Virus record (IMG/VR): IMGVR_UViG_3300015615_000629
Coordinates: 256,001-320,000 of that record
From: a virus
Lineage: Duplodnaviria; Heunggongvirae; Uroviricota; Caudoviricetes
Direction: 5' to 3' (one strand)
DNA length: 64,000 nt
Shown: one piece after another, positions 28,504-49,023 of the stretch
How positions within the stretch are numbered: the first letter of the stretch is position 1
Layout: every line of letters starts with the position of its first letter
Notes under the pieces: generated by a model
Database searches by the model: none
What the model saw: only the letters and a program-made list of their open reading frames with translations
Told to the model about the DNA's origin: nothing
Position numbers and translations under genes: made by a program

Positions 28504-30195
<1,692 letters not shown>

Positions 30196-30201
30196 CTCTT
30201 A

Positions 30202-30346
30202 AAAAACACTACTTCATCTGAGTCGCACTAGCAGTTTTGATAAACAACTAGGAATCGAACCTAGTCTTCAACCTCTGAAGGGTTGCGTCCTACCAACGGA
30301 CACTTGTTTGTAATGCTGTTGCAGTTGGAGACGTAGTAGTATTTTT
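30202..30346 (-). ncRNA. Y-RNA-like (YrlA-like) unit 2 with complete tRNA-like domain, UCA loop
   Basis: 18-bp closing stem with G-U pairs that only form on the minus strand; D arm GUCC/GGAC, anticodon arm CAACC-CUUCAGA-GGUUG, T arm CUAGG-UUCGAUU-CCUAG. Confidence 0.75.
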
Positions 30347-30355
30347 CCTCGTGTA

Positions 30356-30565
30356 TTAACCGAACACGGCTTCCGGACGAACCGTAATGTCACCCGTTGC
30401 CCGGTTGCGTTCAACGTGCATGTAACTCAACTTGCCCGACTCCAAATTTAAATGAGCCGTGACAGCCGACAAAATCTGTTCGTCAGACGAAACTTCGCCA
30501 ATATCAAGCAAGTTCTGCTCGACATCGTAACTTCGTCCGTCGTATCGAATGTGTAGTTGAGCCAT
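30356..30565 (-). CDS. Small ubiquitin-like (beta-grasp-type) protein ending RPEAVFG
   Basis: 69 aa; beta-beta-alpha-beta pattern, C-terminal Gly, AAGGGG RBS; E1 and JAB genes nearby. Confidence 0.6.
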   Translation of the reverse strand: MAQLHIRYDGRSYDVEQNLLDIGEVSSDEQILSAVTAHLNLESGKLSYMHVERNRATGDITVRPEAVFG

Positions 30566-30594
30566 TTTAGTTTACCCCTTGTAAAAAAGACTTC

Positions 30595-30692
30595 GGTATC
30601 TGAGTCCTAGCAGCGTTGTCTTTGGGGCTTCACGCCCCGCAGACGGTCAAAACTTTGCAAGTGTTTGTAATGCTGTTAGCGTTGGAGACACC
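30595..30692 (-). ncRNA. Y-RNA-like unit 3 (GCA anticodon-like loop)
   Basis: GGUGUCUCCAAC..CAUUACAAACA..GACUCAGAUACC; UUGCAAA loop and GGGGC/GCCCC hairpin. Confidence 0.65.
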
Positions 30693-30787
30693 TGAGTCAA
30701 GGCGGGAGATGCTGGATTCGAACCAACTATTTCGGTTTTCAGTCGAAACGTTACCTTGTTTGTAGAGTTCTGTCAGTTGGCGACGGT
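30690..30787 (-). ncRNA. Y-RNA-like unit 4 (GAA anticodon loop plus T arm)
   Basis: GUCGCCAACUG..CUACAAACA..GACUCAG; UUUCGA-CUGAAAA-CCGAAA and GUUGG-UUCGAAU-CCAGC. Confidence 0.65.
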
Positions 30788-30859
30788 AAAACCATCGAAG
30801 TCGAAAAAACCTGACTTTTTTAAATCTCCCGAATGACAACCATTGGTTGCCACTCCCCT

Positions 30860-30887
30860 AATCTACCGCAGTTTTTTCGTTTGTCAA
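30860..30887 (-). promoter_or_regulatory. Sigma70-like promoter TTGACA-N16-TAGATT for the RNA/Ubl/TROVE unit
   Basis: Minus strand ttgacaaacgaaaaaactgcggtagatt; 5' hairpin at 30831-30855. Confidence 0.65.
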
Positions 30888-30896
30888 CCAACTTTT

Positions 30897-31328
30897 TCAA
30901 GATTTTTTGTTTTTGCCAAAATTTTCGCAAAAACCCGCCAAAGTGCTGCCAATATTCCGATAGTAACGCTTGATTTCAGCGATCTCAAATTCCTGATTTC
31001 TAAAAGAATCCAGACTGACACCATTGGAAGAATGCACAAATCGGGTAATCTTGTCACCCTTGAAACATAAAACGCCTGCATCGTTTCTTAATAAAGGGTG
31101 AAATTTGGATTCCGAATCCAGAGAATTCCATAATTCTAGTTCTTTTTCAGTTGGTTTCAAGTCTTCAATTTCAAATCCATCAATTCCTGGGCTTCCCATA
31201 ATATACTTTTTTCCCTTAAATTCAATAATATGCTTTCTGCTTGGATGTCGCATGGCTTCCCTGATTTGCCTGCGTGCATCAGGGTCAGACATCATTTTTC
31301 GAAATCTATCACTAAGTAATACTTCCAT
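30897..31328 (-). CDS. Hypothetical protein
   Basis: 143 aa ORF. Confidence 0.55.
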   Translation of the reverse strand: MEVLLSDRFRKMMSDPDARRQIREAMRHPSRKHIIEFKGKKYIMGSPGIDGFEIEDLKPTEKELELWNSLDSESKFHPLLRNDAGVLCFKGDKITRFVHSSNGVSLDSFRNQEFEIAEIKRYYRNIGSTLAGFCENFGKNKKS

Positions 31329-39053: not shown

Positions 39054-39695
39054 ATGGCACCAACTACATATAAATTTGAATGTTGCAACTGCGGTAAAAA
39101 ATGTGAGAGAGAACTTCGTTCACATCCTAAATATAAGGGTGATCTATGGAAAGGTAGGCTTTTTTGTTCTTTGCAATGTTTGGGAAATTTTAACAACAAA
39201 ACCACAATAGAACCATGTGGGAATTGTGGAAAATTAGTTGAAAAAATACCAAAAGAAATAAAAGATTCTAAATCAGGAAAAGTGTTTTGTAGTAGGTCAT
39301 GCTCAGCGTCCTTTAATAATAAATTTAAACGTAAGACAAATCGTTCCAAGTGCGAGAAACTTTTATTTAATCTAATCTCTGAAAAGTTCCCAGACTTAGA
39401 AATATTGTCTAACGATAAAACAATGTTAAATGGCTTGGAAGCGGATATTGCTATTCCATCTTTAAGACTCGCAATAGAGTGGAATGGGCCGGTTCATTTC
39501 AAACCAATATATGGTGAAGAAAAATTACGTAGGATTCAGGAGATTGATAGAAACAAATTAGAAATAGCCTCTAGAAATGACATTAATTTGATTGTCATTC
39601 CAGACTATGTTTCCAAAAAATCTTTCGTGTTAGAAGTTTTCGAAAAAATAAAGAAAATTATCAACGACTTACGTAGCGGAACCGGCACGGTATGA
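39054..39695 (+). CDS. Zinc-finger plus PD-(D/E)XK (DUF559/Vsr-like) endonuclease, putative free-standing homing endonuclease
   Basis: CxxC..FCSxxC repeats; EADIAIPSLRLAIEWNGPVH; opposite strand, overlaps the 3' end of a tRNA-Ser. Confidence 0.7.
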   Translation: MAPTTYKFECCNCGKKCERELRSHPKYKGDLWKGRLFCSLQCLGNFNNKTTIEPCGNCGKLVEKIPKEIKDSKSGKVFCSRSCSASFNNKFKRKTNRSKCEKLLFNLISEKFPDLEILSNDKTMLNGLEADIAIPSLRLAIEWNGPVHFKPIYGEEKLRRIQEIDRNKLEIASRNDINLIVIPDYVSKKSFVLEVFEKIKKIINDLRSGTGTV

Positions 39696-39759
39696 TCGTG
39701 CAACCCTTTCGGGCATCTGTTTTCGAGGCAGACTGCTATTCCAATTTCGCTTCGGTTCC
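39677..39759 (-). tRNA. trnS: tRNA-Ser(CGA)
   Basis: Acceptor GGAACCG/CGGUUCC, loop CUCGAAA, long variable arm, G73; atypical T loop AUCAUAC. Confidence 0.8.
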
Positions 39760-39765
39760 TTAGAG

Positions 39766-39847
39766 CGGATGCGGCGTGTGCCGACCACGCAACCCTTTCG
39801 GGCAGCCGGGTTCAAACCGGTGTCCTCGCCAACTTCGGATCGCATCC
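39766..39847 (-). tRNA. trnS: tRNA-Ser(TGA)
   Basis: Acceptor GGAUGCG/CGCAUCC, loop UUUGAAC, long variable arm; atypical T loop GUCGGCA. Confidence 0.8.
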
Positions 39848-39855
39848 ATTTACAG

Positions 39856-39940
39856 CGGAAGGTGTGGAAGTCGAATCCACAAGGGTTTTATCCTCGACTC
39901 TTTAGCAAAGAGTTCCCGTCGCCAATCGGGTTGACCTTCC
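39856..39940 (-). tRNA. trnS: tRNA-Ser(GCT)
   Basis: GGAAGGU/ACCUUCC, ACUCU-UUGCUAA-AGAGU, T loop UUCGACU. Confidence 0.9.
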
Positions 39941-39950
39941 AAATTAAACG

Positions 39951-39975
39951 TAAGTCCTTACCATATAAGGACTTA
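39951..39975. repeat. 10-bp inverted repeat between Ser tRNAs
   Basis: taagtcctta-ccata-taaggactta. Confidence 0.6.
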
Positions 39976-39979
39976 AGAG

Positions 39980-40059
39980 CGGATACGGAGCGATTCGAAC
40001 GCTCAACCCTTTCGGGCGACCGCTTTCCAAGCGGTTTCCTCACCATTCGGATCGTATCC
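39980..40059 (-). tRNA. trnS: tRNA-Ser(GGA)
   Basis: GGAUACG/CGUAUCC, ACCGC-UUGGAAA-GCGGU, T loop UUCGAAU. Confidence 0.9.
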
Positions 40060-40663: not shown

Positions 40664-41146
40664 TTAACCTTTCGGTAATTCGGTTGGTGAAACCTTTTGA
40701 TTTGTCAACTTCCCTTGAGCTATGTCAAATAACCATTGAGCCCATACTGCCCTTGGAATAATTCGTCCGCCTATCTCTTCTGTTGTGATCGGTAAGCCAT
40801 GTGCAATAGGAGATAAATGCCCATCAAACATCGACCACCAAAAGTGCGATATACTTTCATCAAATTTCTTAATTATGTTTTTTGAAGTATATTTAATGTC
40901 TCCCAAACAAACAAAACCCTCATTTACGTTAGGGAGATCAGGAAACTCAAAACTATCTTCGGTTTCAAACCAAACCGCTAAACTGACTGGTAAACCATCC
41001 GTGGGCACCCATAAAAAGAAATGTATCTTGGGGAAATCTATATAATATGAGCGATTCCAAACGTTTAGTAAAGTCCTCTTCCCTGCTGGTTGTGTTCTGT
41101 GATAAATATAAGTGTATTCACTAATTTTGTAACAATCTGTAGTCAT
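40664..41146 (-). CDS. Prok-E2_D-like paralogue 7
   Basis: KRT..YYIDFP..LPNVNEGFVCLG..ISHFWWSMF. Confidence 0.65.
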   Translation of the reverse strand: MTTDCYKISEYTYIYHRTQPAGKRTLLNVWNRSYYIDFPKIHFFLWVPTDGLPVSLAVWFETEDSFEFPDLPNVNEGFVCLGDIKYTSKNIIKKFDESISHFWWSMFDGHLSPIAHGLPITTEEIGGRIIPRAVWAQWLFDIAQGKLTNQKVSPTELPKG

Positions 41147-41150
41147 TTAA

Positions 41151-41714
41151 TCACAAATTGGCTAAAGATTTTAAACTCTTATACGTTTCTTGTTCGTCTT
41201 CCGAAACCTCAGCCACCTTGTATACACATATCTTACCTTTTCTTAAATCATTATAAAACTTGGTTCTTTCTATCTCTGTCTCTTCAGCACGAGCGTATAC
41301 ATCGCCTGTTCCATTAAAAAGAGCAAAGTTGTTTGTGAAACCCAATTCCCAAAATTGGTCAATTACCTTTTTACACAAGACAACAGGATCACTCTCTTCT
41401 ATCTTAATATCATATCCTAAACAAACGTACCCATTGTTGTCGTAAGCACAATTAGGTAATCTTAAACAATTTCCATACTTCGTCCGTACTATTAAAGCAT
41501 CGTCGCTTTTCTCATCTGATAAATCAAACACATATGTTTCAAGTTTTCGAAAATATACTTCAAAATTGAAACTTGGGAACGAGACACAATAAGGTCTGCT
41601 GGCTCCAAAAAATAGTTGGTCTTTAAAATAAACAGTCCTCTTGCAAGCAGGATTCTTTACCATGCCAAAATAACGACAATTATCACTTTTATTTTGGTAA
41701 AAATTGACTTTCAC
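41151..41714 (-). CDS. Prok-E2_D-like paralogue 8
   Basis: KRT..PYCVSFP..LPNC..GYVCLG..VIDQFWE; GTG start overlaps the upstream stop. Confidence 0.65.
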   Translation of the reverse strand: MKVNFYQNKSDNCRYFGMVKNPACKRTVYFKDQLFFGASRPYCVSFPSFNFEVYFRKLETYVFDLSDEKSDDALIVRTKYGNCLRLPNCAYDNNGYVCLGYDIKIEESDPVVLCKKVIDQFWELGFTNNFALFNGTGDVYARAEETEIERTKFYNDLRKGKICVYKVAEVSEDEQETYKSLKSLANL

Positions 41715-42221
41715 AATCCTAACCTGTAAAGGCCGCTTCTTCTGACATTTCCAACGCCTTTTCCAACCCACTCCCCATAAAACTGCCAAATATTGTATTC
41801 CTGTATATCTTCCGTTCTTAATTCCTTTAACTTTTTCCTTATCTCGTCGGATTGCAATAGAATCACCTGCCCAGGAGCAGGCCGATACCTATCGTAAACT
41901 CTCTTTCTCTCCGCATAGTCAATTCTATCCCCAAACAGAAGCCGACAATGAAGAGCCGAATTAATCAATTCAGCAACTATATGTTGCGGACTTCTGTTTG
42001 CAAGCGTATCTGGAACCAAATAACATTGCGAAATCATGTTTTTCTTTCCGGCACTATCGCCTTCGATATTCTCCACAAACACAGTAAAACTAAAAAGAAA
42101 TAACCAAACCAACCTGGAGCGTTTTCTGCTTTCCATTCCCACTCAAATATGAATGGAATAAAAATCATCAAAGCCATTAGGGCTAATGTTGCGGTTCCAA
42201 CCAAAACAGCAGAAAAGATTT

Positions 42222-42740
42222 TCATTTCATCAATTCCTTTAGGGTTAGCCTTTTGTCCGGTATGGCTAACGCACTTAATTTGTTAGGACTTACTAATATC
42301 ACGCCCTTCTTGAGTGCTTTTACAAAACAACGTTGCATGTGTATTTTTTCTATGCGATCCTCGCCAGCGAGCATTGTATTAAATTCAGACCGCCAAAAAC
42401 TATCTATAACTTTTTTACATAACCGTAGTGGAGATTTAGCAGTAATTTGTTCGTCCTCTTCTCCCATGCAAACCATACCATCTGATACCGAATAAACATT
42501 CGGTAGTATAATCCCACGCCCTTTTGATGTTTTTACTGCAACTCCCTCATCATCTGTCTCATAGTGGTTGTTAGATATCTTTATAAAAAGTATTTCAAAT
42601 ATCAACTCGGGAAAACTTACAAAATATGGTTTATCATCATAAAAGATAGTTCTGCTGTGTTTTGGCACCAACACCTTGCCCAAATATTCGCCCTCATCGT
42701 GGTCGCTGAGCCTCGGCAATGTGAAGAATTTGTATTTCAT
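42222..42740 (-). CDS. Prok-E2_D-like paralogue 9
   Basis: SRT..PYFVSFPELIF..LPNVY..GMVCMG..VIDSFWRSEFN. Confidence 0.7.
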   Translation of the reverse strand: MKYKFFTLPRLSDHDEGEYLGKVLVPKHSRTIFYDDKPYFVSFPELIFEILFIKISNNHYETDDEGVAVKTSKGRGIILPNVYSVSDGMVCMGEEDEQITAKSPLRLCKKVIDSFWRSEFNTMLAGEDRIEKIHMQRCFVKALKKGVILVSPNKLSALAIPDKRLTLKELMK

Positions 42741-42757
42741 TGTGGTATCGGCCCAAA

Positions 42758-43255
42758 TTAAGCCTTACGTTGCAAATCAAAGGCTGAGATTTCTTCGCCT
42801 AGAAACGTTGAATTAATCTTGTCTTCTGAAAGCGATATTTCCCCTTTTTCTATATCTTCAAAGAATTTATCTTCGGCGTCTTCCTCTTCCTCGGAATTAT
42901 CCAAACCAAGAAATTGATTGAATTCAGACATCCAAAAACTATCCAAGATTTTCTTACATAATTCAATTGCGTTTTTGTCTTTTATCGAGTTATCCAGGCC
43001 GGTACAAACAGTGCCTTCCCAATCTACATTGGGAAGATTTATACCATAGCCCTCTTTTGATTTGATAAGCAAATCGCAAAAATTAATGTTAAAATAAAAA
43101 CCATCCTCAATTATGAAATCTATTTCAAATACCAAATCCGGAAATCTGACATAATAAGGAGTCATTATGTAGAAAATAGTTCTAGAATGACTCGGTACAA
43201 ATACCTGTGCTATACAGCATTTTCTCTTTGAGTTTTCAAAAAACTTAATTTCCAT
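42758..43255 (-). CDS. Prok-E2_D-like paralogue 10
   Basis: SRT..PYYVRFPDLVF..LPNVDWEGTVCTG..LDSFWMSEFN. Confidence 0.7.
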   Translation of the reverse strand: MEIKFFENSKRKCCIAQVFVPSHSRTIFYIMTPYYVRFPDLVFEIDFIIEDGFYFNINFCDLLIKSKEGYGINLPNVDWEGTVCTGLDNSIKDKNAIELCKKILDSFWMSEFNQFLGLDNSEEEEDAEDKFFEDIEKGEISLSEDKINSTFLGEEISAFDLQRKA

Positions 43256-43410
43256 GCCTTTTCTCGAATAAAATTAATTCTTTTTTGAGAAATTGCCGTT
43301 GCTTCTTTCTCGACTTTATTTCCCGAAGATCAGACTCATGCCACCATTCCAACCAGTGCTTTAAACAAAGTGCTGTTGGGGAAACATATTTGGCTTGTTT
43401 TGGGCATTTT

Positions 43411-43896
43411 TTACAAATCATCTCTAACTCGATAATCTTCTAATTCACCATTAATTACTTTAATCAGTATCGCAGTCCACCAAGACGGAGCAAATTGCCG
43501 ACCAATACTACAATCATACGAGGTAGGATCAAATCTAGATTGCCAAAAATAAGAAACTAGATTTTTAAGTTGCTCAGATACAGAGTCTTTAAATGGAATT
43601 ATATCGTTTCCCGTACACATCGAGCCACTATTACAATTTGGAAAACCAGAATATGTTATCACCCCATCTTTTTCAAAAAACACTATCAAACCGCCCCTGT
43701 TACTAGAAGAAGTGATGGCCCGCCAAAGAAAAAAATGTATCTTCGGCAGGTCTAAACAGACAGGCTTATTTCCTAAAATAACAGTCCTAGAACATGGCTC
43801 TTGCTCAGCATGAGCCATATGAACATCGAAATCGTAACCTGCCGTTTTAATAGTCTTTAGAGTCTTTGGTATTTTGTAACACTTGATCGGTCGCAT
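43411..43896 (-). CDS. Prok-E2_D-like paralogue 11
   Basis: SRT..LPKIHF..FPNCNSGSMCTG..VSYFWQSRF. Confidence 0.65.
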   Translation of the reverse strand: MRPIKCYKIPKTLKTIKTAGYDFDVHMAHAEQEPCSRTVILGNKPVCLDLPKIHFFLWRAITSSSNRGGLIVFFEKDGVITYSGFPNCNSGSMCTGNDIIPFKDSVSEQLKNLVSYFWQSRFDPTSYDCSIGRQFAPSWWTAILIKVINGELEDYRVRDDL

Positions 43897-43902
43897 TTGG
43901 CC

Positions 43903-43930
43903 ATTATAGCACAGTCTGGACAGATGTAAA
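43903..43930 (-). promoter_or_regulatory. Sigma70-like promoter TTTACA-N16-TATAAT with TGTGC; leaderless to ATG 43896
   Basis: Minus strand tttacatctgtccagactgtgctataat. Confidence 0.6.
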
Positions 43931-43931
43931 A

Positions 43932-44018
43932 TGAGAGTACACGGAATTGAACCGCTCGGCTATCCACCCGACTTTTTAGAGCCTTGTGTTCTACAGACAC
44001 ACGTCGGGAAATACTCTC
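43932..44018 (-). tRNA. Atypical tRNA-Tyr(GTA)-like gene lacking a normal D arm
   Basis: Acceptor GAGAGUA/UACUCUC, UGUGU-CUGUAGA-ACACA, T loop UUCAAUU; CCCGAC replaces the D arm. Confidence 0.6.
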
Positions 44019-44503: not shown

Positions 44504-44505
44504 AG

Positions 44506-44593
44506 TGACCGAGACAGGACTTGAACCTGCACGCCTTATTTATTCGGCACGGCGTTCTCATCGCCGCATGGCTGCCAATTACATCACTCGGTC
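44506..44593 (-). tRNA. trnL: tRNA-Leu(GAG)
   Basis: GACCGAG/CUCGGUC, CGGCG-AUGAGAA-CGCCG, long variable arm, T loop UUCAAGU. Confidence 0.85.
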
Positions 44594-45351
44594 TTATTTG
44601 CGGCTATTTTAGCCCAATAACCTCTAGGAGGTTTATTGATTCCTAAATTCTTTGCCCACTTAGCAATCGCATTATCACTCACGCCAAAATCTTTGGCAAT
44701 TTGCGTTGTTGGTTTTTCCCAAAGTAATTTTTCAAGTTCATCTTTGGTTGGGTGTGGAACTTTGTGTGGTTTCGGTCTTTTACGCCAATTGTTATCAATA
44801 GGATTGCCGGATTTTATTCTTTTATCTTTTCTTTTTGTTCTCGCTACACGATTAAACTCGCCAGTGTTCCCTGTTAATCCAGTTTGTCCTTTATTAAGTC
44901 CAAACGTAGATGTTTGACTATGGCAGTTTGGACACATAAATCTAAGATTTTCTTTTTTATTGTCTAAAAAATTTCCGTTGATATGATCAACATGCAATCT
45001 TATCTCTTTTCCTTGCCACATACCATTGCAACCACATTTTTCACACTTATACTCTCTCCCACTTTCAATTAGTGCTCGTCTAAGTCGAACACCATGTTCT
45101 CTTCTATACTGGGTTTTTCCTTCTACAAGAATTTTACTCCAATGTTGTTTTTTTGGAGACGTTTTTCCTCGACAATGACATTGACCTGTAAAATGAGATG
45201 AATCAATTTTAAGGTTTTTTATTTTATTTCTTATATTTGTATGGCTTCCTCCTCCAAATTTAATGCCTAATCTCCGCATTACCTCGGAGATGGACATAGA
45301 CTGTTTTACTGCTTCTTCAAGTTGTTCTTTTGTATATTTTGTGTAACTCAT
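44584..45351 (-). CDS. HNH endonuclease with HTH domains, free-standing within the tRNA cluster
   Basis: CEKCG..LHVDHING..DN..ENLRFMCPNCHSQT; C-terminal IAKDFGVSDNAIAKW HTH. Confidence 0.85.
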   Translation of the reverse strand: MSYTKYTKEQLEEAVKQSMSISEVMRRLGIKFGGGSHTNIRNKIKNLKIDSSHFTGQCHCRGKTSPKKQHWSKILVEGKTQYRREHGVRLRRALIESGREYKCEKCGCNGMWQGKEIRLHVDHINGNFLDNKKENLRFMCPNCHSQTSTFGLNKGQTGLTGNTGEFNRVARTKRKDKRIKSGNPIDNNWRKRPKPHKVPHPTKDELEKLLWEKPTTQIAKDFGVSDNAIAKWAKNLGINKPPRGYWAKIAANKTE

Positions 45352-45416
45352 ACCCTAAGAGAGTATGGCTTTACCAAATATAACTAAAAGATATCAAATT
45401 TTACGAAAATTTTAAG

Positions 45417-45490
45417 TAGCTCCGGCGAGATTCGAACTCGCAGCATCGAACGTTCTAAGCGTTCGTGGTCGTCCAGTTGCCTACAGAGCC
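45417..45490 (-). tRNA. trnL: tRNA-Leu(TAG), short variable loop
   Basis: GGCUCUG/CGGAGCU, GAACG-CUUAGAA-CGUUC, GCGAG-UUCGAAU-CUCGC. Confidence 0.85.
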
Positions 45491-45507
45491 AAATTGATAT
45501 TTTTAAG

Positions 45508-45581
45508 TAGCCCAGAACGGATTTGAACCGTTAGCATCGGATTTTTTGAAAATCCGTGGTCTTCCAGTTGCCTACTGGGCC
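45508..45581 (-). tRNA. trnL: tRNA-Leu(CAA), short variable loop
   Basis: GGCCCAG/CUGGGCU, GGAUU-UUCAAAA-AAUCC, AACGG-UUCAAAU-CCGUU. Confidence 0.85.
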
Positions 45582-45612
45582 ATTGAATCAAATTAAATTA
45601 TCAAAGAACAAA

Positions 45613-45687
45613 TAAGACGGGTGGGACTCGGACCCACAAACGAAGATTTTTAAAATCTTCCGCATTATCCAGTTAGCGTACCGTCTC
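45613..45687 (-). tRNA. trnL: tRNA-Leu(TAA), short variable loop
   Basis: GAGACGG/CCGUCUU, AAGAU-UUUAAAA-AUCUU, GUGGG-UCCGAGU-CCCAC. Confidence 0.8.
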
Positions 45688-45691
45688 AAAG

Positions 45692-45764
45692 TGGTAAGGA
45701 TCGGAATCGAACCGATTTAGCGCCGTCTTCAGCGGCGTGCAATGACCACACCTGCTCCCTTACC
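45692..45764 (-). tRNA. trnF: tRNA-Phe(GAA)
   Basis: GGUAAGG/CCUUACC, CGCCG-CUGAAGA-CGGCG, AUCGG-UUCGAUU-CCGAU. Confidence 0.9.
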
Positions 45765-46017: not shown

Positions 46018-46028
46018 AAAATTCCTAG

Positions 46029-46114
46029 TAGCCACAGCCGGACTTGAACCGGCAAGGGGTTTGCACCCCATCGGATTTTAAGTCCGATGCGTTTTCCAAT
46101 TTCGCCATGCGGCC
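46029..46114 (-). tRNA. trnL: tRNA-Leu(TAA), long variable arm
   Basis: GGCCGCA/UGUGGCU, UCGGA-CUUAAAA-UCCGA, GCCGG-UUCAAGU-CCGGC. Confidence 0.9.
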
Positions 46115-46117
46115 AAC

Positions 46118-46154
46118 AAAAAACCCTCAGTAACCACTTGGTTACTGAGGGTTT
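46118..46154 (-). terminator. Strong intrinsic terminator (attenuator) immediately upstream of the tRNA cluster
   Basis: aaaccctcagtaacca-ag-tggttactgagggttt plus T-tract, ending a few nt before the first tRNA. Confidence 0.8.
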
Positions 46155-46180
46155 CGTATTCCCTAAGTCTAAGCGGTCAC

Positions 46181-46246
46181 TCAGCCATCGTCGCTATAGA
46201 GCGACAAGGATAAAAATGACAGGCTTAGACTAAACATCGCGTTCAT
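46181..46246 (-). CDS. Putative attenuator leader peptide MNAMFSLSLSFLSLSLYSDDG
   Basis: ATG AAC GCG ATG TTT AGT CTA AGC CTG TCA TTT TTA TCC TTG TCG CTC TAT AGC GAC GAT GGC TGA, between promoter and terminator; below the ORF-track length cutoff. Confidence 0.75.
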   Translation of the reverse strand: MNAMFSLSLSFLSLSLYSDDG

Positions 46247-46297
46247 TGTAGTGTATCTATTCTTCTCGTTTTGGTTTTTCTGCCACCGACTACAAAA

Positions 46298-46325
46298 ATC
46301 TTAGCACAGGATTTTCGTTTGTCAA
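46298..46325 (-). promoter_or_regulatory. Sigma70-like promoter TTGACA-N16-TAAGAT with TGTGC, heading the tRNA cluster
   Basis: Minus strand ttgacaaacgaaaatcctgtgctaagat. Confidence 0.7.
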
Positions 46326-48093: not shown

Positions 48094-49023
48094 TCAAAAG
48101 AAATCTCCTTGGTCGAAATACTTGAATCCCAATCTTTTGGCAAAAGTTTCATCGGTCGTTTGATCGCCGACGTAAATGCATTCTTTGGGATTCAATTTAT
48201 ATTTTTCGATCAAATAAACTCCCAAACCGCTTTGTGGTTTCCTACAATAGCAGGTTGGAGGGACATTATGTGGACAGAACACGTAATCAATATCGTGTCC
48301 TAGCAATTCATTTGTCTTATCAAAGCAGAGAACCGCGTTTTCTCTTGTTACTTGTTTTCTGGCAATTCCTGATTGGTTAGAAACGCCTAGCAGGAGATAG
48401 CCGTTATCTTTATATTCTTGTAGTTTTTCTTTTCTGTTTGGGAGAAGTTTGACTTCTTCTGGGTTGATAGGAAATTGGAATTCCCCTGTGGATTCTCTCA
48501 AAGTGCCATCATAATCGAGAATAAGTGCTTTGTTTGTATATTCGGATGGATTCCTTTTAAATTCTTTTTTGGTTATACTATTAAATCCTTCTTCTCTGGA
48601 AGGTTTTTTGAATTCTTTTCTATATTTGAAAAGGACAACGGCTGGGAATGTATTTGGATCTTTCTTGACTTCTTTAATTGATTCTAAGTCTAGGAATAGT
48701 TTTCCGTATTTTTGGTGCATCCTGTGAAGTGCGTTAATTTGGGCATCTTCGATGCTAGTTGCGACTAGGATGCAGTGAATTTCTGCTTTATTTTTATAGG
48801 CTAATTCTATAAAGGGTCGTCTACTTTCTACTGTTGGGAAGAGATTATCTAAGACTACATTTTTGCCTTGGCGTAGACAATTCTCCATTTTGGGCAACAA
48901 GTCGATAACTTCGCCGCCTTGTGTATCCCGATTCAGATGGATGTAGCCTTTTTCGATATATTCTTTTGCGATGGAGCTTTTACCGGAAGCGGGTGAACCG
49001 CAAATTAGAATTACTTCTGTCAT
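48094..49023 (-). CDS. Bifunctional polynucleotide kinase / 3'-phosphatase (PNKP-like)
   Basis: N-terminal GSPASGKS..NRD..VLDN kinase; C-terminal HAD DYDGTL..SNQSG..CRKP..VGD. Confidence 0.85.
   Translation of the reverse strand: MTEVILICGSPASGKSSIAKEYIEKGYIHLNRDTQGGEVIDLLPKMENCLRQGKNVVLDNLFPTVESRRPFIELAYKNKAEIHCILVATSIEDAQINALHRMHQKYGKLFLDLESIKEVKKDPNTFPAVVLFKYRKEFKKPSREEGFNSITKKEFKRNPSEYTNKALILDYDGTLRESTGEFQFPINPEEVKLLPNRKEKLQEYKDNGYLLLGVSNQSGIARKQVTRENAVLCFDKTNELLGHDIDYVFCPHNVPPTCYCRKPQSGLGVYLIEKYKLNPKECIYVGDQTTDETFAKRLGFKYFDQGDFF

Follow-up and report, generated by a model that had tools for sequence, protein, structure and literature searches.

Transcription attenuators that act through a leader peptide include trpL, hisL, leuL, pheL and pheM of pheST, as well as the multivalent thrL and ilvL. 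The T-box riboswitch binds uncharged tRNA directly via one specifier codon, without translation, and there are reports of T-boxes near tRNA genes in Firmicutes. Classical leaders repeat the codon that is most sensitive to starvation, and ribosome release at the stop codon can set their basal level (PMC1183508). As for long tRNA arrays, the cyanobacterial L-array (the trn operon of Anabaena PCC 7120) is repressed by TrcR, normally silent and induced by translational stress (PMC8421152, PMC10272220). TrcR is described as cyanobacterial (PMC10272220), and attenuation, a leader or a terminator are not mentioned in PMC8421152. In tRNA-rich regions of the T5 type, described as having a strong promoter, phage tRNAs make up for host tRNAs that defence nucleases have cut (PMC11555353); our own scan detected no leader/terminator unit upstream of the T5 tRNAs.

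The locus described here lies within a 64,000-nt stretch of DNA (the window, C1:256001-320000) of a complete 572,167-bp phage genome with direct terminal repeats. This megaphage encodes a T4-like gp23; its capsid protein is 70% identical to the counterpart in LR756511.1 and 74-80% identical to those of the best 80 of 404 related IMG/VR stretches. Like trpL-type attenuators, the locus combines a promoter, a short ORF of control codons, predicted mutually exclusive 1:2/2:3/3:4 folds and an intrinsic terminator, and the six-segment relay of two sister leaders in the same genome resembles hisL. Unlike in trpL-type systems, the controlled genes are tRNAs and not enzymes, the location is a phage, many codons are used about once each (4-16 amino acids, with most isoacceptors sampled), and several attenuators divide the whole code. 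Besides tRNAs, the region downstream of the leader encodes an HNH nuclease and hypothetical and E2-like ORFs, with no biosynthetic enzymes or synthetase; as its targets are tRNA genes, the phage unit is not a member of the amino-acid or synthetase operon families. With the L-array it shares a long spare tRNA array containing an HNH gene, whereas there a protein repressor acts at initiation and codon classes are not partitioned. The T5-type region is similar in that phage tRNAs serve as replacement for cut host tRNAs, as they would here. A T-box likewise switches a terminator by tRNA status; no Rfam match to it was found at E<=1 in the window or at E<=5 in the other arrays. In addition, an rrn-type boxA motif of host type is present on the sense strand early in the transcript. 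The mechanism is a classical one, while the target and the codon logic, attenuation of tRNA genes by a codon-matched leader, are undescribed in the (mostly open-access) literature searched. This is in line with an earlier reading of the sequence alone (the sequence-only reading), to which no such attenuator of a phage tRNA array was known.

The unit and its tRNA genes are all located on the minus strand. A promoter scan placed a sigma70-type promoter, TTGACA-16-(TG)TAAGAT, at 46298..46325; it is one of about a dozen TTGACA...GTGCTA promoters in the genome, and similar ones were found upstream of 24 of the 31 leaders tabulated below. It is followed by a leader ORF of 21 codons (46181..46246), recognized from the sequence and its conserved frame, with a second in-frame ATG at codon 4 and a weak or absent Shine-Dalgarno sequence. 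Control codons 5-18 (46234-46193) specify only Phe, Ser, Leu and Tyr, and include five different Leu and five different Ser codons. The leader region folds strongly (z=-5.8). When untranslated, the leader forms a 1:2 hairpin (anti-antiterminator, 46166..46233) with the segment just past the stop codon, and the minimum-energy fold contains the pairing of 46231-46223 with 46174-46166. The intrinsic terminator (46118..46154) has a stem of 13-16 bp and a U-run; its hairpin spans 46154-46121 (-22.8 kcal/mol) and the U-run extends to 46118. It was detected by folding, while a custom pattern scanner did not pick up the hairpin. Promoter, ORF, codon counts, terminator and 1:2 pairing had all been described in the sequence-only reading, and each was found where that reading had placed it. 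The first tRNA gene starts at 46114. Since the distance from the terminator stem to this gene is 10 nt, there is no room for a separate promoter, which had been considered an alternative source of the tRNAs.

The array begins with tRNA-Leu(TAA) (46028..46114), followed by tRNA-Phe(GAA) (45691..45764), a second tRNA-Leu(TAA) (45612..45688), tRNA-Leu(CAA) with an enlarged anticodon loop (45507..45581), tRNA-Leu(TAG) (45416..45490) and tRNA-Leu(GAG) (44505..44593). ARAGORN/Rfam called these five Leu genes, the Phe gene and Ser(GGA). The second Leu(TAA), Leu(CAA) and Leu(TAG) genes (45416-45688) have short variable arms. An aberrant tRNA-Tyr(GTA)-like gene (43932..44018), without an ARAGORN or Rfam call, was recognized from sequence and manual folding; acceptor, anticodon and T arms are present and the D arm is abnormal. 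The charging identity of this gene and of the three short-arm Leu-anticodon tRNAs is uncertain. A segment of the Tyr-like D arm is able to pair with the variable loop of the same gene. Four tRNA-Ser genes (39677..40059) follow about 4 kb beyond the Leu/Phe/Tyr genes: Ser(GGA) (40059-39979), Ser(GCT) (about 39940-39856) and Ser(CGA) (about 39759-39677), the latter two called only with relaxed ARAGORN settings, and Ser(TGA) (about 39847-39766), found by manual folding. For each of the ten anticodon types in the array, the leader contains a cognate codon. The match of leader and tRNA set proposed earlier thus stands, with the reservations that Ser(TGA) and the Tyr-like gene were assigned by hand and that the CTG codon has a wobble reader only, as the array lacks a Leu(CAG) tRNA.

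Control over the whole set is less certain than had been claimed. It would apply to the Leu/Phe/Tyr genes, whereas a possible internal promoter, TTTACA-16-TATAAT (43903..43930, 11/12 consensus matches), sits between these and the genes leading to the Ser block, so that the latter is perhaps not wholly leader-dependent in the window phage; most relatives have their Ser genes directly after the terminator. As for other genes of the region, the HNH endonuclease inside the array (44584-45351, -) overlaps the start of tRNA-Leu(GAG), and a run of paralogous ORFs with an LPN...G.VC.G motif (40664-43896, -), one of them with a weak Prok-E2_D match, lies between the Leu and Ser tRNA blocks.

Two further tRNA arrays are present in the genome, each with its own leader and terminator. 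One sister leader (L001:4691-4762, C1 116761-116690, -) contains codons for Ala, Val, Glu, Met, Gly and Pro, the other (L002:11054-11143, C1 342142-342053, -) for Ile, Gly, Thr, Arg, Asp, Lys, Gln, His, Asn, Trp and Cys, and each precedes an array of exactly those tRNAs. Both show six-segment folds with a repeated GCTCAGG motif. In the three leader/array pairs of this one genome, a leader's own array served 0.78, 0.95 and 0.88 of its codons and the other arrays at most 0.17, and between them the three leaders sample all 20 amino acids. Upstream of the third leader, a pair of tRNA-like elements whose loops are abnormal was also seen at C1 342260-342430 (-), between a promoter at 342617 and the Met tRNA preceding this leader.

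Relatives were located via gp23, a gp47-like marker and tRNA searches of whole records. Exact-pattern searches of viral contigs with the window leader or a sister terminator gave nothing relevant, and blastn of the leader region against named phages returned tRNA matches only. We tabulated 31 units of leader, terminator and array and found two more, giving 33 phage leaders. The relatives share 44-58% identity with the window phage in the gp47-like marker, and both the leader ORF and its codon bias are kept across this divergence. Every Leu/Ser array with intact upstream DNA was preceded by a leader. In G002 the leader is located 1.3 kb upstream; in G026 a large array begins at the contig end, and in two genomes with dispersed tRNAs (G015 and G028) no matching leader/terminator unit was detected. 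Among 21 homologues, 9 of the 11 consensus pairs of the terminator showed compensatory changes (RNAalifold).

The leader codons shift with the tRNA content of the array, as the sequence-only reading had predicted. Outside the Leu/Ser class, tRNAs are partitioned in four different ways among the phages, and the leaders match each of them. For example, an Arg/Ala/Val/Gln leader (L294:11841-11927, -) precedes an Arg/Val/Gln/Ala tRNA block in G027; in G029, one leader (L298:5850-5960, +) is matched to a Pro/Gly/Asp/Phe/Thr/Glu/Val/Ala block and another (L297:5336-5422, +) to an Asn/Lys/Ile/His/Gln/Arg/Cys block; and in LR756511.1, where the block is merged, all of its 16 amino acids occur in the leader (L098:9830-9937, -). 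When eight leaders were compared with eight arrays, the true pairing gave an exact permutation p=5e-5. Phe codons are absent from the Leu/Ser core in four genomes with Phe tRNAs elsewhere, and present in the leader of the other array; these genomes form one clade, so that this covariation counts as a single event on the tree. Two Cys codons appear in leader L185, where two tRNA-Cys genes joined the array. Leu is reduced to a single codon in L139, a leader whose array has no Leu tRNA. Five phages have a full set, that of one being inferred from two contigs out of the same sample, and in each of the five the leaders jointly cover 20 amino acids. In five general arrays, a CAT tRNA, initiator-like by eye, precedes the leader and is not part of the controlled segment, which would be expected if the leader itself needs initiator tRNA. 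In G027 (L295:15350-15980, -), tRNAs with the stop-reading anticodons TTA and CTA lie between the Met tRNA and the leader, and a lone CTA-anticodon tRNA occurs in the window genome (C1 30802-30894, -). In G031 (L158:7400-8800, -), the start of a tRNA-Leu gene is apparently interrupted by an HNH ORF and repeated after it.

The composition of the leaders points to selection on individual codons. In the window leader, the run of 14 codons for Phe, Leu, Ser and Tyr is the joint longest over six frames of the 572-kb genome, the other being poly-Ser, and when its 42 nt were shuffled 200,000 times, a frame restricted to these residues arose once. Over all Leu/Ser cores, whose ends were set by a rule favouring these residues, 300 of 313 codons (96%) belonged to this set in frame; the two remaining frames gave 31% and 33%, and shuffled bases 49%. 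Among leaders chosen from 1-3 candidate ORFs per terminator, partly by composition, 407 distinct codons were counted, while 365±6 were expected from phage codon usage and 377±6 from uniform usage. As some leaders are near copies, pooled p-values are overstated; with near copies removed, 250 distinct codons remained against 235±5 expected. A cognate leader codon existed for 289 of 329 array anticodon types, compared with 253±6 under synonymous recoding. Taken by itself, the window leader shows a modest excess of codon diversity (p about 0.03-0.06). In four-codon boxes the leaders under-use NNT codons, and in two-codon boxes they favour codons that end in U. It thus appears that each leader codon may have been chosen to report one tRNA.

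For the computed switch, transcripts were folded to 6 nt short of the terminator 3' end and sequestration of the lower 5' arm was measured. In the window leader, sequestration amounted to -2.5 kcal/mol without a ribosome and -6.8 kcal/mol with one stalled at codon 10. It stayed at about -7 kcal/mol with the A site on codons 5-16, a plateau that coincides with the control codons, and reached -2 to -4 (-3.7) kcal/mol with the ribosome at the stop codon. A ribosome on codons 5-16 therefore favours the antiterminator, as had been anticipated. The predicted 2:3 antiterminator (46130..46180) pairs 46180-46171 with 46139-46130 and encloses AGGG 46164-46161 paired with CCCU 46151-46148; a 2:3 fold thus exists, and its best pairing differs from that of GCUGAG or CUUAGGG with CCCUCAG suggested before. 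Over the 31 leaders, sequestration in the stalled state exceeded that of the free state in 29, that of the at-stop state in 24 and that of shuffled sequences in 28, one leader (G034) failing the folding test. In several relatives, a ribosome at the stop codon leaves the antiterminator in place, and its release would be needed for termination. In the computed folds antiterminator and terminator are mutually exclusive, clearly so for the window leader and weakly in a few relatives. When the masked RNA was folded at full length, the terminator (-32.1 kcal/mol) prevailed at equilibrium over the antiterminator (-25.2 kcal/mol); a kinetic switch is therefore required. From 21 leaders, RNAalifold recovered the terminator but neither 1:2 nor 2:3, as the leader part aligned poorly; for these two pairings, covariation thus lacks column-by-column support.

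A motif search located an rRNA-type boxA-like element at 45595..45611, and one such element is present per tRNA array in the window genome. The motif was found on the sense strand, no more than 1.5 kb downstream, for 18 of 31 terminators, and never antisense or upstream. It probably loads Nus factors which carry transcription through the long array. When the 17-nt version from relatives was searched for in bacterial genomes, 57 of the 80 loci listed belonged to Planctomycetota, where the motif is found 170-260 nt ahead of 16S genes, ahead of 23S genes or within long tRNA arrays. This hints at a host from Planctomycetota. A host search via the CCA enzyme, bS21, ClpP and a signature domain of Planctomycetes was without result. 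Among the listed loci, the first tRNA of all nine Pirellulaceae arrays with an intact 5' end (L338, L346, L347, L348, L367, L372, L373, L381 and L385) is preceded by an ORF of 33-42 codons, a spacer of 30-35 nt and a terminator, in this order; in Stieleria magnilauensis TBK1r, the leader (L338:4582-4689, -) precedes the chromosomal tRNA array. An antiterminator was computed for the Pirellula-like group, in which sequestration is about -10 through the ORF and 0 at the stop codon. The Pirellulaceae leaders contain 15-18 amino acids in 33-42 codons and are unpartitioned. Because these leaders are mixed and the arrays near-complete, codon matching is uninformative there. From their similar layout and computed folds, these units may represent a cellular form of the same control.

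Taken together, the locus is very probably a ribosome-stalling transcription attenuator which would give feedback control of the phage tRNA operon. According to this model, host RNA polymerase would start at 46325-46298 and a ribosome would translate the leader. When Leu, Ser, Phe and Tyr codons are read fast, the ribosome would leave, 1:2 would form and the terminator would close before the first tRNA. When a codon is read slowly, its tRNA being cleaved, scarce, unmodified or uncharged, the ribosome would hold on codons 5-16 and block 1:2. The post-stop segment could then pair into the terminator before the 3' arm is made, and polymerase would read through into the matching tRNAs. We infer that the leader is translated and that the switch works in this direction in vivo. 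The sister attenuators would act likewise for Ala/Val/Glu/Met/Gly/Pro and the remaining 11 amino acids, so that the whole code would be covered in three channels. Replacement of tRNAs upon loss of an isoacceptor, as had been proposed, thus gains support as far as the codon-matched switch is concerned; the response would concern the whole block and not single isoacceptors.

Extra tRNA would be no remedy for amino-acid starvation, which makes a loss or shortage of tRNA the more likely signal; candidate triggers are host anticodon nucleases or a general tRNA shortfall. Dilution or phage-driven decay of host tRNA would act in the same way as a tRNase. Host nucleases that cut tRNA are commonly deployed against phages, and tRNAs supplied by the phage can rescue infection (PMC11555353, PMC13056530). 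Besides a CCA-adding enzyme, the phage encodes a PNKP-like kinase/HAD phosphatase, whose gene (48094-49023, -) lies 1.8 kb upstream of the leader. Both are consistent with tRNA upkeep, and the latter is possibly a tRNA end-healing enzyme; RtcB was not found in the phage genome. That the three attenuators form an inducible counter-defence, which would sense anticodon-nuclease attack per tRNA class and switch on solely the block with the replacement, is a serious possibility to which we give somewhat less than an even chance.

The same anatomy could be read as a general sensor of translation coupling, where any slowing of the ribosome, be it by antibiotics, host shut-off or poor initiation, would open the terminator and codon identity would be of minor importance. 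Pirellulaceae leaders with the same switch and an unremarkable composition would fit this, as would the induction of the cyanobacterial trn array by general translational stress (PMC8421152, PMC10272220). However, such a sensor needs no codon partition, yet the phage leaders track their arrays through rearrangements and over-sample isoacceptors, and their ribosome-free fold favours termination; we consider it unlikely. Quite improbable, too, is a codon-sensitive leader whose output is not read-through, i.e. one of opposite polarity or one affecting processing or stability of the tRNA precursor. In its favour are the high stability of the terminator, which prevails at equilibrium, an ambiguous at-stop state in roughly one leader in four, and the position of the hairpin next to the first tRNA, where it could be a processing signal. 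Nevertheless, hairpin and U-run are conserved with compensatory changes even with the first tRNA 0.4-1.2 kb off, and stalled folds invade the terminator in 29 of 31 leaders.

Similarly, the region might be a structured non-coding RNA or a constitutive terminator in which a pyrimidine-rich strand happens to read as Leu/Ser/Phe, with tRNAs made by leak-through or from other promoters. Codons for these residues are pyrimidine-rich and the region folds strongly; moreover, T5 tRNAs are transcribed from many interspersed promoters, no such leader having been found there. This is made very unlikely by the frame specificity, by the absence of Pro codons from the Leu/Ser cores (0 vs 20 expected), by the purine-initial AGY Ser codons present in them, by the two sister leaders, which are not pyrimidine-rich yet match their own arrays, and by start and stop codons kept despite about 50% marker identity. 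Finally, the 21-residue peptide is hydrophobic and might itself be functional, e.g. as a small membrane peptide. As its residue order is not conserved, its composition follows the tRNA genes and its synonymous codons are over-diversified, this seems scarcely credible.

Whether phage tRNA sets serve codon optimisation or replacement of destroyed tRNAs is a long-standing question. If the attenuator model is true, these sets would represent on-demand repair of the tRNA pool, in a feedback loop where tRNA genes are controlled by the decoding performance of their own tRNAs. A 200-nt reporter makes the question testable one tRNA at a time, and the leader of the cultured Stieleria magnilauensis allows a test without phage isolation. 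If the counter-defence reading holds as well, the codon lists would record the tRNAs targeted by Planctomycete defences. Another use of the leaders might be as compact sensors of tRNase activity.

Some further RNA-like elements were noticed. A tRNA-SeC(TCA) call at 30239-30310 falls among three repeated tRNA-like units flanked by GTCTCCAAC...GACTCAGA (window 30050-30900, -). The units adjoin a small ubiquitin-like ORF, just upstream of a Ro60-like gene (28504-30009, weak vWA_Ro60 match), and the called element is probably Y-RNA-like rather than a suppressor. Elsewhere in the genome, relaxed ARAGORN settings gave a tmRNA-like call (C1 182063-182419, -) directly behind a TTGACA...GTGCTA promoter at 182457.
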